A stretch of 41,220 nucleotides of DNA from Candidatus Heimdallarchaeota archaeon. GTDB lineage: Archaea; Asgardarchaeota; Heimdallarchaeia; Heimdallarchaeales; Heimdallarchaeaceae. Of the stretch, positions 1 through 3,314 are shown one piece after another. Under the pieces are notes generated by a model. That model was not told the origin of the DNA, made no database searches, and saw only the letters and a list, made by a program, of their open reading frames with translations. The translations under genes and the position numbers were made by a program. The first letter of the stretch is position 1; the number at the start of each line of letters is the position of its first letter. The stretch lies in assembly GCA_019057375.1 (NCBI GenBank), contig DXJF01000091.1, positions 1-41,220 of the forward strand, read 5' to 3'.

Positions 1-144
1 AAACGGGGAGCCTAGCTAGCTCTGTGCTGATAGCCCACTAACTAACACTGTCTTCATGACTTCCCCTCAACGCACGTGAGGGGATCCACTTAAACGACGG
101 TTAGAAAGCCTCTGGCAAGTTTAACCAAGTTTCATAACGTGCGT
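1..144 (+). mobile_element. Probable terminal non-coding end of an insertion sequence (IS110/IS1111 bridge-RNA-like, or IS200/IS605 TnpB omegaRNA-like); transposase lies outside the window
   Basis: More GC-rich than its surroundings, with no long ORF. Perfect 8-bp hairpin 62-69/77-84 (tcccctca/tgagggga) nested in an outer stem 42-52/96-104. It directly abuts a 5'-truncated host gene. Family assignment is inference. Confidence 0.45.
42..104 (+). ncRNA. Putative structured RNA module (stem - internal loop - hairpin)
   Basis: Pairs a47-t101, c48-g100, t49.g99, g50-c98, t51-a97, c52-g96. The G.U wobble favours the + strand. Unpaired 53-61 and 85-95 flank the 62-84 hairpin. Folded by eye only. 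Confidence 0.4.
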
Positions 145-375
145 CTAGGACATACTGCTTACATAGTCGATGAAGAATACCTGTTTACAGGTAATGCTCT
201 TAGATTGAATAAAAGTGTAGTCAAACCATTTCTCAGAATAATCAGTTTAGATTTTAAAAAACAACTAAAATCTATTGAAATGCTATCTCAACTCGATAAC
301 ATATCTATCTTGTTTACAGCTCATAATGGTTTTACTACTAACTTTGAAAAAGCTATAGAAAATTGGAAAAATTAA
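139..375 (+). pseudogene. C-terminal remnant of a metallo-beta-lactamase-fold hydrolase
   Basis: LGHTAY..LFTGNAL..LFTAHNG matches the C-terminal MBL motifs (GHT.GH, LFTGD, HG). The HxHxDH motif and N-terminus are absent, and GD is changed to GN. Confidence 0.55.
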
Positions 376-514
376 AACTCTCTTTCGTGAACTCGTGAGC
401 AGCTCCTACTTTATTTTTCAATTTCGTCTGCTTACTTAGTAACCTATTAATAGTTATACAACACGAATGATTAACTTTATATCGAATTAAATAGGCGATA
501 AATAAAACAAATCG

Positions 515-588
515 ACAACTTAATGTATACCTTTTACCGAAATGTATATATACCTTTTACCGAAATGTATACTTAAATCTTGAGTTGT
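515..588. promoter_or_regulatory. Perfect 23-bp tandem repeat inside a 9-bp imperfect inverted repeat, upstream of the membrane-protein/PadR operon
   Basis: tataccttttaccgaaatgtata at 526-548 and 549-571. Flanked by acaacttaa (515-523) and ttgagttgt (580-588), which are 8/9 complementary. Confidence 0.55.
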
Positions 589-593
589 GACAA

Positions 594-2387
594 ATGAATA
601 CAGTTTCTCAGGAAAAAATTAAGAGTACATTTCTAAAGAAGTTATTAAAAGAATTGATAAAACGAGGTGCACCAAATAGTACAATTAAGCAAACTCTAGA
701 TGAAGCTGCTGGAAGTTTAACAGATTATATTAGTGAAATGGATCTTAAAAATCTAGAATCTCTCGAGCAAAACTTTGGAACTCCGCAACAATTTTGTAAT
801 GAACAAATGATTGAATTTAATCGTGATGGATATCTTGCTCAATTATTCTATAATGTAATCTTTTCCCTTAGTTTTCTAACTATATTTGGTTTTGGTTTTT
901 CATTTTTGACTTTTTGGGAGTTTATTTACGGTCATGCTTTAAGTATTCCTTCTGCTGAAGCACTTATGCAAATCAGTAGTGGAATAAATGGATTATTGGG
1001 GACTCTGTTCTGTTTAAACGTTTTAGTATGGATTCTCAATAGATATTTCTCAAAGAGTTTATCAACATATGATCTGAGAAATAGAATACAAAACAAAGCA
1101 ACACTGGGAATATATTGGTATTTAGTATTAATCTGTGTAAGCATGTTCAGCTATTTATATTCAAAAGTTGGTTTTTTACTCCCTTTTGTTTGGAAACAAA
1201 ATATGAAGTTCTTAGTTATAGAAGGTTTATTGAGATGGCTCTTATTATTGTTTTACTTATCTACCACAGCAATCCTGTATACCATTAAATACGTGAAAAA
1301 TAACTCTGCAAAATTAAGAAAAGAAAATAGAACATATTTGATAGACAGTTTAGAAGGACTTGTATTTGTATTTGTACTAATAAGTTTCGTTGTCCCTCAA
1401 CCAGGAATTGGCTTGCTTGTAATATTATTGGGAATTAGTACAATACTAACCAATAATGTAACAGTAAAGACTTGGCTATTAGGCGTTACATCCATTTGTG
1501 TACAATTTGGTGTTCTTTTCAGAAATTTGATATTTTTTAGCTTCGATTTCCTTGGAGTTGATAGAACTAGTATTATTTTTGGAGTTAAGTTTACTCTCAA
1601 AGGTAATGAGGAAAAAGAATGGTATGCAATAATAGTATGTATCATTTTAATATTATTGTGGACCATTTCATGCATCTTAATTTTCAAAAGAGAGAACAAA
1701 AAATACAGACTAAAATTTGGTTTTAGAAAAGTAGGTAAGCAATATATCTCAGTTATTCTAATTTTCTTGGTTGGAGTTTCTCTTCTCGGATCTCAACCAC
1801 AGGAAACTACTTTGAAAATTGATTTTATGCCTGAGTATGATCAGATTAATGACTTATATAAGATTAATGAAAGAGTATGGATACCTAGAAAGGGAAAAAT
1901 CTATGTTTCTTTCTATGACTATGTCAGTTTCACACTTTGGGACTATGATTCAAATGGTTCTGTTGTTAATATAACTAATATTGTAGTAAATGGAAGTTGG
2001 CAAGTCACATGGCAAAATCAGGGAGAAAGCTTTAAATCCTTCTTTAAACAGGGATTTTTTAGCTCTCTCGCAGCTCCTACTGTTTTTGTTGTTGAAAGAG
2101 AAGAGTACAACGTGACTCAAGCCTTATGGTACTTTGTAATAGAAGCTAAAAGCTCAGGAATTCTTGAGTATCATTCAACAATTCTTGAGTATCTTTCAAC
2201 GGTGCTTCGTGAAGAAATTTCAATAATTATACCTTCCATGTCTTATCGTTGGGTAGCTCAAATTTCATGGTTTCCGTTTTATCTTGAACCTATAGTTGTT
2301 GGATTCATACTATCCTTTCTTCTTATAGACTTTGATACAAAGAATCAAATAAAAAGTAGACAAAGAAGTAAAGGAAGGGAGAGTTGA
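594..2387 (+). CDS. Multi-pass membrane protein with N-terminal HAAS/DUF1700-like helical domain
   Basis: N-terminal helical segment ending in LEQNFGTPQQF resembles the HAAS 'FGxP' motif. About 10 hydrophobic segments, then a soluble domain and a final TM helix. Adjacent to PadR. Confidence 0.6.
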   Translation: MNTVSQEKIKSTFLKKLLKELIKRGAPNSTIKQTLDEAAGSLTDYISEMDLKNLESLEQNFGTPQQFCNEQMIEFNRDGYLAQLFYNVIFSLSFLTIFGFGFSFLTFWEFIYGHALSIPSAEALMQISSGINGLLGTLFCLNVLVWILNRYFSKSLSTYDLRNRIQNKATLGIYWYLVLICVSMFSYLYSKVGFLLPFVWKQNMKFLVIEGLLRWLLLLFYLSTTAILYTIKYVKNNSAKLRKENRTYLIDSLEGLVFVFVLISFVVPQPGIGLLVILLGISTILTNNVTVKTWLLGVTSICVQFGVLFRNLIFFSFDFLGVDRTSIIFGVKFTLKGNEEKEWYAIIVCIILILLWTISCILIFKRENKKYRLKFGFRKVGKQYISVILIFLVGVSLLGSQPQETTLKIDFMPEYDQINDLYKINERVWIPRKGKIYVSFYDYVSFTLWDYDSNGSVVNITNIVVNGSWQVTWQNQGESFKSFFKQGFFSSLAAPTVFVVEREEYNVTQALWYFVIEAKSSGILEYHSTILEYLSTVLREEISIIIPSMSYRWVAQISWFPFYLEPIVVGFILSFLLIDFDTKNQIKSRQRSKGRES

Positions 2388-2389
2388 AA

Positions 2390-2758
2390 ATGAATGTTGA
2401 TGAACAAGAGAATCCTCTACTAAAAGCTTGGAAAGTACAACTCTCTAGAGGATTACTTGAGTTTTTAGTTCTTGTTCTATTGGAGAATAAGAGGCATGGT
2501 TACGATATTCTTCAGACAATTCGTTCTCTTTTTCCTAGATCTGAACCTCCTTTGTCTGATGGTACAATATATAATATACTCACAAGGTTAAAATCAAAAG
2601 ATCTTGTGTCAATGGAAACTGTACTTTTTGAAGGTAGAATGAGGAGATATTATTGTTTAACAAAGAAAGGTAAACAACTACAACAAGAAATGATTGATGA
2701 ATGGACAAATTTGAATTCATCTGTAATTAAAGCTCTAGAAATGTATTCCTTAATTTAG
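2390..2758 (+). CDS. PadR-family transcriptional regulator
   Basis: LEFLVLVLL..HGYDI..GTIYNILTRL..RRYYCLTKKG is a typical PadR winged helix. ATG at 2390 is preferred over TTG at 2384. Confidence 0.92.
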   Translation: MNVDEQENPLLKAWKVQLSRGLLEFLVLVLLENKRHGYDILQTIRSLFPRSEPPLSDGTIYNILTRLKSKDLVSMETVLFEGRMRRYYCLTKKGKQLQQEMIDEWTNLNSSVIKALEMYSLI

Positions 2759-2816
2759 TTTTCAACAATGATTTCATTGATTCTACTTCAAAAATTATTA
2801 TAGAAAAAGTAATTAA

Positions 2817-3314
2817 CTAACTAGTTAGTTTTCCTATTTCTTCTGCCCACTTTACCATATCTTCTTCTTTCCAGTTATGAGTACTATAAGTTCCAGGTTT
2901 TCCTCTGTTTTCTATCCATCCTCCAAAAACAGCTGTTAATGTTGGTTCAATGTTAGCGTTTTTCTTAACAACTTTATCAAGAAAACGACCTTTCCACTTC
3001 TCATATTTTTCCATTTCACCTTTTTCTAAAGCAGGATAAGTTATACCAGCTGATGAAATGAAGACAAACAATTTCTTTCCACTAAAATCATTTTTTAGAA
3101 ATTTCTTAGCTCTTTTTGTCCAGCTGAACTTAGCTAAACTTGATCCAACGATTACATTATCAAAACTAGATAAATCTACATTTTCTGTTTCACTTGAAAG
3201 TTTGACTACTTCCACTTCATGATTGAACTTTTCTTTTAATTCTCTAGCAATTACTTCTGATGATTTAGCTGTTGCACCAAATCTGGTTCCATATGCGATT
3301 AATGTTTTGCTCAT
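2817..3314 (-). CDS. Flavodoxin-domain protein (Flavodoxin_5/HemG-like)
   Basis: LIAYGTRFGAT FMN-binding loop, VIVGSS and FGG motifs. GGTG ribosome-binding motif before ATG 3314. Confidence 0.8.
   Translation of the reverse strand: MSKTLIAYGTRFGATAKSSEVIARELKEKFNHEVEVVKLSSETENVDLSSFDNVIVGSSLAKFSWTKRAKKFLKNDFSGKKLFVFISSAGITYPALEKGEMEKYEKWKGRFLDKVVKKNANIEPTLTAVFGGWIENRGKPGTYSTHNWKEEDMVKWAEEIGKLTS

Follow-up and report, generated by a model that had tools for sequence, protein, structure and literature searches.

A gene-less IS607-type element with a predicted TnpB omegaRNA scaffold at its right end in a Heimdallarchaeal genome

Results

A 348-bp insertion splits a hydrolase gene

The window, by which we mean the whole 41,220-nucleotide stretch of a Candidatus Heimdallarchaeota contig analysed here, starts inside a mobile element. 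Names of proteins in the database also point to Heimdallarchaeota as the host. The first 144 bases of the window (1-144, + strand) are the right end (element positions 205-348) of a 348-bp MITE/PATE-like element that has no genes and derives from an IS607-type tnpA-tnpB element, and they adjoin the 3' part of a gene for an MBL-fold hydrolase (145-378, + strand). The 5' part of this gene is found on contig C49 (35987-36433), which also carries the first 204 nt of the element and whose end overlaps window positions 1-96, all 96 nt being identical. An open reading frame is listed at 139-375, but its start is an artefact.

Where exactly does the element end? Similarity among the 13 copies in the host genome stops right after position 144, with unrelated sequence beyond, and matches to the right end, present in 22 of 25 genomes of the genus and numbering about 200 in total, all end at 144. 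In four relatives the site is empty and reads CACCGT|TTAGGACAT, that is, ACCGT and then window sequence from 145 onward with a single mismatch, so that the boundary falls between 144 and 145; in the orthologues of G013, G024, G023 and G006 the MBL-fold gene is uninterrupted and its protein runs ...TPGHRLGHTAY... through the site. The end of similarity and the empty site together establish that the insertion is exactly 348 bp long, lies 3' of ACCGT, ends at 144 and is without target duplication. The initial annotation had taken positions 131-144 for a 14-bp junction at which host coding sequence resumes. They belong to the element as its final 14 nt, as they do in every copy, and are therefore neither host sequence nor a junction.

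We considered and rejected a 3-bp target duplication (CGT), prompted by the CGT common to the flank and the right end; at a single site it is inseparable from a shared crossover core. Three MITEs (L028, L029 and L049) combine a variant left motif with a consensus right end, a pattern that later mutation or core mismatch fits better than strict duplication. At the opposite end, the first five element bases (C49:36434-36438 and equivalents), between ACCGT and the conserved left-end ACTGAG, differ widely among sublineages and are common within them; their sequence suggests a spacer under no constraint between core and binding site.

The element belongs to a family with tnpA and tnpB

The family is IS607-like and occurs in three forms: about 2.7 kb with tnpA and tnpB, about 2.1 kb with tnpB only, and 250-395 bp without genes. 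The host genome has three copies of 318-355 bp that lack an ORF, those elsewhere in the genome being C81:24423-24740 and C65:8485-8839, and gene-less copies are also present in seven relatives. Eight further copies in the host genome share their last ~84 nt (from about position 61) with the MITE, and in these an ORF of ~620-645 aa enters the hairpin described below. Common to MITE and tnpB copies are the left end, the right end and, upstream of tnpB, a TATA-like box, which the MITE has kept in the right orientation. Short, without an ORF, bounded by the ends of an autonomous family, present in several copies and precisely inserted, the gene-less copies have the make-up of MITEs or PATEs. Positions 182-195 of the MITE interior (C49:36615-36628) also share a block of 11-14 nt, GTCCCTCAGT..., with a place about 815 nt into tnpB (six full copies), and this could be either a deletion joint or chance.

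Two variants may be mentioned here. L084 (G008:C15:30550-31520) is a 767-bp derivative with left flank ACCGT that has kept tnpA but not tnpB; its right end, the same 84 nt, begins 12 nt past tnpA. In the host genome, a solo 90-nt right-end fragment (C124:13357-13446) lies directly 3' of an unrelated 574-aa ORF; because its pseudoknot is broken on both strands, we read it as probably a decayed remnant.

The transposase of the family is seen at locus L073 of a relative, where tnpA lies directly upstream of tnpB and both are enclosed by the same ends. This tnpA (L073:1398-1994) encodes 199 aa that match Pfam MerR (1.6e-9) and then Resolvase (1.1e-20); by sequence, a TnpA with a MerR-type HTH and a serine recombinase domain, followed by tnpB, is the architecture of IS607. 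Of 24 relatives, 19 have homologues of this tnpA, often with a right end some 2 kb away. The link of the family to both genes is established. The initial annotation had proposed that the gene upstream should tell a DEDD transposase from TnpB: at the level of the family it is TnpB and not DEDD, which by the annotation's own criterion speaks for the pseudoknot, while the upstream part of the present copy is itself without an ORF. The IS110 DEDD domain (PF01548) has no match in the host genome, although control genomes do match. An assignment to IS200/IS605 was likewise rejected, no Y1 TnpA being present in 25 genomes of the genus and the TnpA of the relatives being a serine recombinase.

A tblastn search with L073 TnpA at E <= 1e-3 recovered no cognate tnpA from the host genome, an assembly that is 89% complete; at E <= 10, two short tnpA remnants of 14-28 codons appear on contigs C92 and C65. 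Since no cognate tnpA is found in its own assembly, the present MITE copy may now be immobile. The host genome does contain four resolvase genes (C56:5306-6061, C127:13421-14179, C16:9817-10587 and C118:7928-8713), which encode serine recombinases of ~250 aa with an N-terminal resolvase domain and none of which adjoins a TnpB match. We rejected them as candidates for the cognate TnpA, as they are unrelated to L073 TnpA by tblastn.

Full-length copies in the host genome encode a TnpB-like ORF, and six tnpB ORFs of this family are intact. The ORF passes the Pfam Cas12f1-like_TNB model (30 bits versus a cutoff of 26.3), a profile search against the PDB matched Cas12f/TnpB chains, and the predicted structure (mean pLDDT 80.6) matches solely Cas12f, TnpB, Fanzor and other Cas12 proteins, with E down to 1e-9. 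Members of the family measure 620-650 aa, including an N-terminal helical region of ~300 aa (L014:168-2033, - strand, the C92 copy; homologues P0004-P0123). D413 and E512 are invariant, as is H597, which aligns with the RuvC-III catalytic Asp of Cas12f and Fanzor2, and the zinc site is H-C-C-C. The predicted catalytic triad is accordingly D-E-H, a known type of RuvC rearrangement in TnpB (PMC10691335). TnpB-type zinc ribbons (PF07282) match 27 times in the host genome, in size classes of ~420, 550 and 660 aa. The matches include C12:71664, C117:15125, C47:51345 and 17 others, and at least three further large TnpB copies are without this right end.

The right end encodes a conserved long-range helix

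The portion shared between MITE and tnpB copies opens with a hairpin, stem 1 of the predicted omegaRNA scaffold (62-84, + strand), in which 62-68 pairs with 78-84. The initial annotation had drawn a hairpin here (62-69/77-84), and it is indeed present, with 97-98% of cells paired (35 and 53 copies). Stem 1 is mostly invariant and hence offers no covariation support; in tnpB copies it overlaps the last tnpB codons and the stop codon, MITE/tnpB similarity starting at about 61.

The loop of stem 1 holds the 5' strand of a second helix (71-77, + strand), the putative pseudoknot, whose 3' strand (137-143, + strand) occupies scaffold positions -8 to -2, immediately 5' of the guide. Among 53 distinct copies, compensatory changes are seen at four of the seven pairs, namely 72:142 (GC in 41, AU in 7, GU in 3), 71:143 (CG in 49, UA in 2), 73:141 (CG in 52, UA in 1) and 76:138 (GC in 51, AU in 1). 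The observed score was reached by none of 500 shuffles, and whereas the helix is 94% paired, an offset of the partner by 1-3 columns leaves 24-45%. Base pairing between 71-77 and 137-143 is thereby established. It had first been noticed as an exact reverse complementarity between 70-77 and 137-144, with a pseudoknot of a TnpB omegaRNA named as the alternative explanation, and it is this alternative that our results support. The outermost pair, 70:144, is not kept, being unpaired in 20 of 53 copies. Note that a perfect 8-nt reverse-complement pair turns up in 11% of dinucleotide shuffles of 1-144; support for the helix comes from covariation instead.

The second letter match reported for this region fares differently. 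Positions 53-60 (ttcatgac) are, as described, identical to 131-138 (ttcataac) at seven of eight bases. Five direct 8-mer pairs with an identity of 7/8 or better are observed in 1-144, against 2.7 expected, and 17% of dinucleotide shuffles reach the observed number, so the identity is at chance level. Moreover, 53-60 falls within coding sequence in tnpB copies and is free to vary, 131-138 hardly varies at all, and no covariation links the two. The proposed left guide is therefore not conserved.

Between the two strands of the long-range helix lies a second stem-loop with a variable tip (99-126, + strand), in which 99-104 pairs with 121-126. The pair 99:126 changes from GC to AU in two copies, and 104:121 is GU or AU. 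An outer stem proposed at 42-52/96-104 does exist in the MITE subfamily, but only there, and it competes with 99-104:121-126, which has compensatory changes. Because many G.U pairs (104:121, for example, is of GU type in 30 copies) fit the tnpB-sense strand only, that strand would be the one present as RNA. An alternative nested fold of the inner part (RNAfold), which does without stem 1, fits the counts about equally. Since it does so, the long-range helix alone is firmly supported. Stem 1 being almost invariant, its simultaneous presence, and with it the pseudoknot topology, is a prediction. Covariance models, which had been suggested as a check, added nothing: an Rfam scan of window positions 1-3000 at E up to 10 returned noise only and no match to RAGATH-18, the IS607 reRNA motif.

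As in an omegaRNA, tnpB ends in a conserved scaffold that stops at the right boundary and gives way to variable sequence. The predicted guide segment (145-164, + strand) is at the same time the stretch with which the host gene resumes, and the 16-mer from the guide region is unique in the host genome.

Element end, target motif and RNA loop vary together

The collection of further copies and empty sites that the initial annotation had called for defines not only the ends of the element but also its core. The crossover core is the dinucleotide CG at 142-143, which the target motif ACCGT has in common with the end of the element. Right ends in ...GTGT adjoin the left flank ACTGT in nine out of nine independent insertions. 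Those in ...GCGT adjoin ACCGT in 20 of 24, L028, L029 and L049 being the three MITEs among the exceptions, and the C144 copy, with a right end in ...GCTT, has the left flank ACCTT, so that CTT stands at both sides. Right-end positions 142-143 thus covary with target positions 3-4 (Fisher p = 2.6e-7), as would be expected if a serine recombinase exchanged strands at a core identical in element and target, and the coupling of core and target is in this way established.

The RNA loop is drawn into the same pattern. Elements with T142 carry a compensating A72 in seven of ten cases and a G.U pair in the other three. Judging from the aligned copies, target motif, element end and RNA loop vary together, the core and the pseudoknot using the same two bases. 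Crucially, two G72 elements with a defined left end (C145a and L094) are still located at ACTGT. It follows that the DNA end base 142, rather than the RNA loop, sets the target, which argues against a bridge-like reading. The proposal that the two loop segments read the junction is at odds with these data: 53-60 covaries with nothing, the partner of 71-77 lies in the same transcript, and it is end base 142 that tracks the target.

The right end also carries one arm (109-136) of an imperfect, subterminal inverted repeat 28 bp long; in the C81 copy, this arm and element positions 14-41, at the left end, are 79% complementary. To go by this symmetry, 109-136 is the probable binding site of TnpA, the serine recombinase. 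Conservation of the right end is therefore partly not RNA-driven, since the right end is also needed for TnpA binding.

Discussion

We regard it as probable, at roughly 0.85, that window positions 1-144 are the right end of a 348-bp non-autonomous IS607-type derivative whose last ~84 nt (61-144) encode a TnpB omegaRNA scaffold. On this account, an IS607-type insertion has split the MBL-fold hydrolase gene of a Heimdall-group archaeon. An RNA, made from the retained TATA box of the MITE or, in full copies, processed from tnpB mRNA, would run through 61-144 into the flank, and the flank from 145 would be its guide. Within that RNA, the GC-rich hairpin at 62-84, with its loop 71-77 pairing with 137-143, would form a pseudoknot of the TnpB/Cas12 type, the second stem-loop lying between. 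The omegaRNA may then load in trans onto an intact TnpB of 620-650 aa from the same genome and direct it to the empty site (ACCGT, then the flank), which would favour retention of the element, while the same end would be the substrate of the serine recombinase TnpA, with 142-143 as the core common to the target. Transcription, loading of TnpB and cleavage are thus steps that we infer. Both main ingredients have precedents: in the omegaRNA of ISDra2, positions -6 to -2 pair with the stem 1 loop, in a pseudoknot reported to be conserved across Cas12 guide RNAs (PMC10097598), and PATEs carrying omegaRNAs used in trans have been described along with a role of TnpB elements in retention and homing (PMC10055086).

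Among competing accounts, the one that survives best, improbable as we consider it, is that the RNA module of the MITE is a passive remnant, kept for recognition by TnpA, with the guide RNA either not made or not used. Such a relic would suit the inverted repeat that the right-end arm 109-136 forms with the left end, the retention of the same right end in L084, which has tnpA without tnpB, and the lack of tnpA in the host genome. Against it, MITE copies keep stem 1 and the pseudoknot intact without any coding constraint, their TATA box is retained and correctly oriented, the genome offers six tnpB ORFs of this family that are intact, and PATEs with trans-used omegaRNAs are on record (PMC10055086).

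A second and still less probable account would have 71-77:137-143 act as DNA, single-stranded or as a cruciform, in the hands of a transposase, in the manner of the DNA guide segments used by Y1 enzymes of IS200/IS605. Insertion beside a fixed pentanucleotide without duplication does resemble IS200/IS605, and G.T pairs would be tolerated in DNA too. However, a Y1 transposase is absent from the 25 genomes of the genus, and the transposase of the family is a MerR-resolvase serine recombinase, which acts on double-stranded sites and whose core matching explains the coupling of right-end core and target. Ends of IS608 type, moreover, differ from the present hairpin, which sits 60 nt from the element end, and this too counts against pairing at the DNA level.

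We see next to no chance for the headline of the initial annotation, an IS110/IS1111 bridge (seek) RNA in which 53-60 and 70-77 each read one half of 131-144 for a DEDD recombinase: the letter matches exist, the last two to three paired bases are identical to the target core and the loop thus has formal complementarity with three nucleotides of the target motif, but there is no DEDD transposase in the genome, the supposed target is element sequence, the "left guide" is unconserved, and all full-length copies bear tnpB, with or without a serine tnpA.

A lineage that moved from ACCGT to ACTGT sites had to alter its DNA end and then compensated in the omegaRNA loop, with A72 in place of G72 in seven of ten such elements. 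A bolder scenario is that TnpB-omegaRNA helps to choose or proofread the target core of TnpA. We think this decidedly unlikely; if true, an IS607 element would be selecting its targets with the assistance of RNA. That target motif, element end and RNA loop are coupled is a modest point but a testable one, and it means that transposase specificity and guide-RNA structure limit each other. Beyond this, a false lead is removed in that there is no archaeal bridge RNA at this locus, and in its place stands an Asgard example of IS607/TnpB with exact ends, an empty site, an ACCGT motif, a predicted guide, an 84-nt scaffold and a pseudoknot supported by covariation. Characterisation of the large D-E-H TnpBs could benefit from the shortness of the scaffold and from the naturally occurring pair of ACCGT and ACTGT.

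How does the element compare with known systems? With the IS110/IS1111 bridge RNA it shares a folded non-coding RNA located at one end of a transposon, with a loop complementary to boundary sequence; unlike there, no DEDD recombinase is involved, pairing takes place within one and the same RNA, the second "guide" lacks conservation and the target tracks the DNA end base. The parallels to the ISDra2 omegaRNA (PMC10097598) are closer: the RNA lies where tnpB ends, overlapping the last part of the ORF, the scaffold stops at the boundary and leaves the flank as guide, bases immediately 5' of that guide form a pseudoknot with the first stem's loop, and a fixed motif (the TAM) lies 5' of the left end. 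The scaffold conserved here is, however, ~84 nt long, as opposed to 116 nt resolved in ISDra2, and shows no sequence or Rfam similarity to it, while the partner protein is one of 620-650 aa with a long helical N-terminal region and a RuvC-III His, and the host is an Asgard archaeon.

ISFba1, an IS607 element (PMC11061315), likewise has a TnpA with MerR-HTH and resolvase domains upstream of tnpB, no target duplication, and a TAM that adjoins the left end and overlaps the recombinase target. It differs from the present family in that the latter has no RAGATH-18 match, in that its RNA overlaps the end of tnpB whereas the two are separate in the ISFba1 type, in that its motif, ACCGT or ACTGT, is not AG-rich, and in that its TnpB is ~230 aa longer. 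Finally, like PATEs and stand-alone omegaRNA elements (PMC10055086; PMC10691335), the present copy is gene-less, with both ends and a guide-RNA module, and would depend on TnpA and TnpB in trans; in contrast to PATEs, its origin is serine-recombinase (IS607-type) and not Y1 (IS605-type), and the tnpB promoter is kept directly upstream of the RNA module. A gene-less IS607/TnpB omegaRNA element is therefore of a kind already known, and the detail added here is that the RNA loop covaries with both the element end and the target motif.
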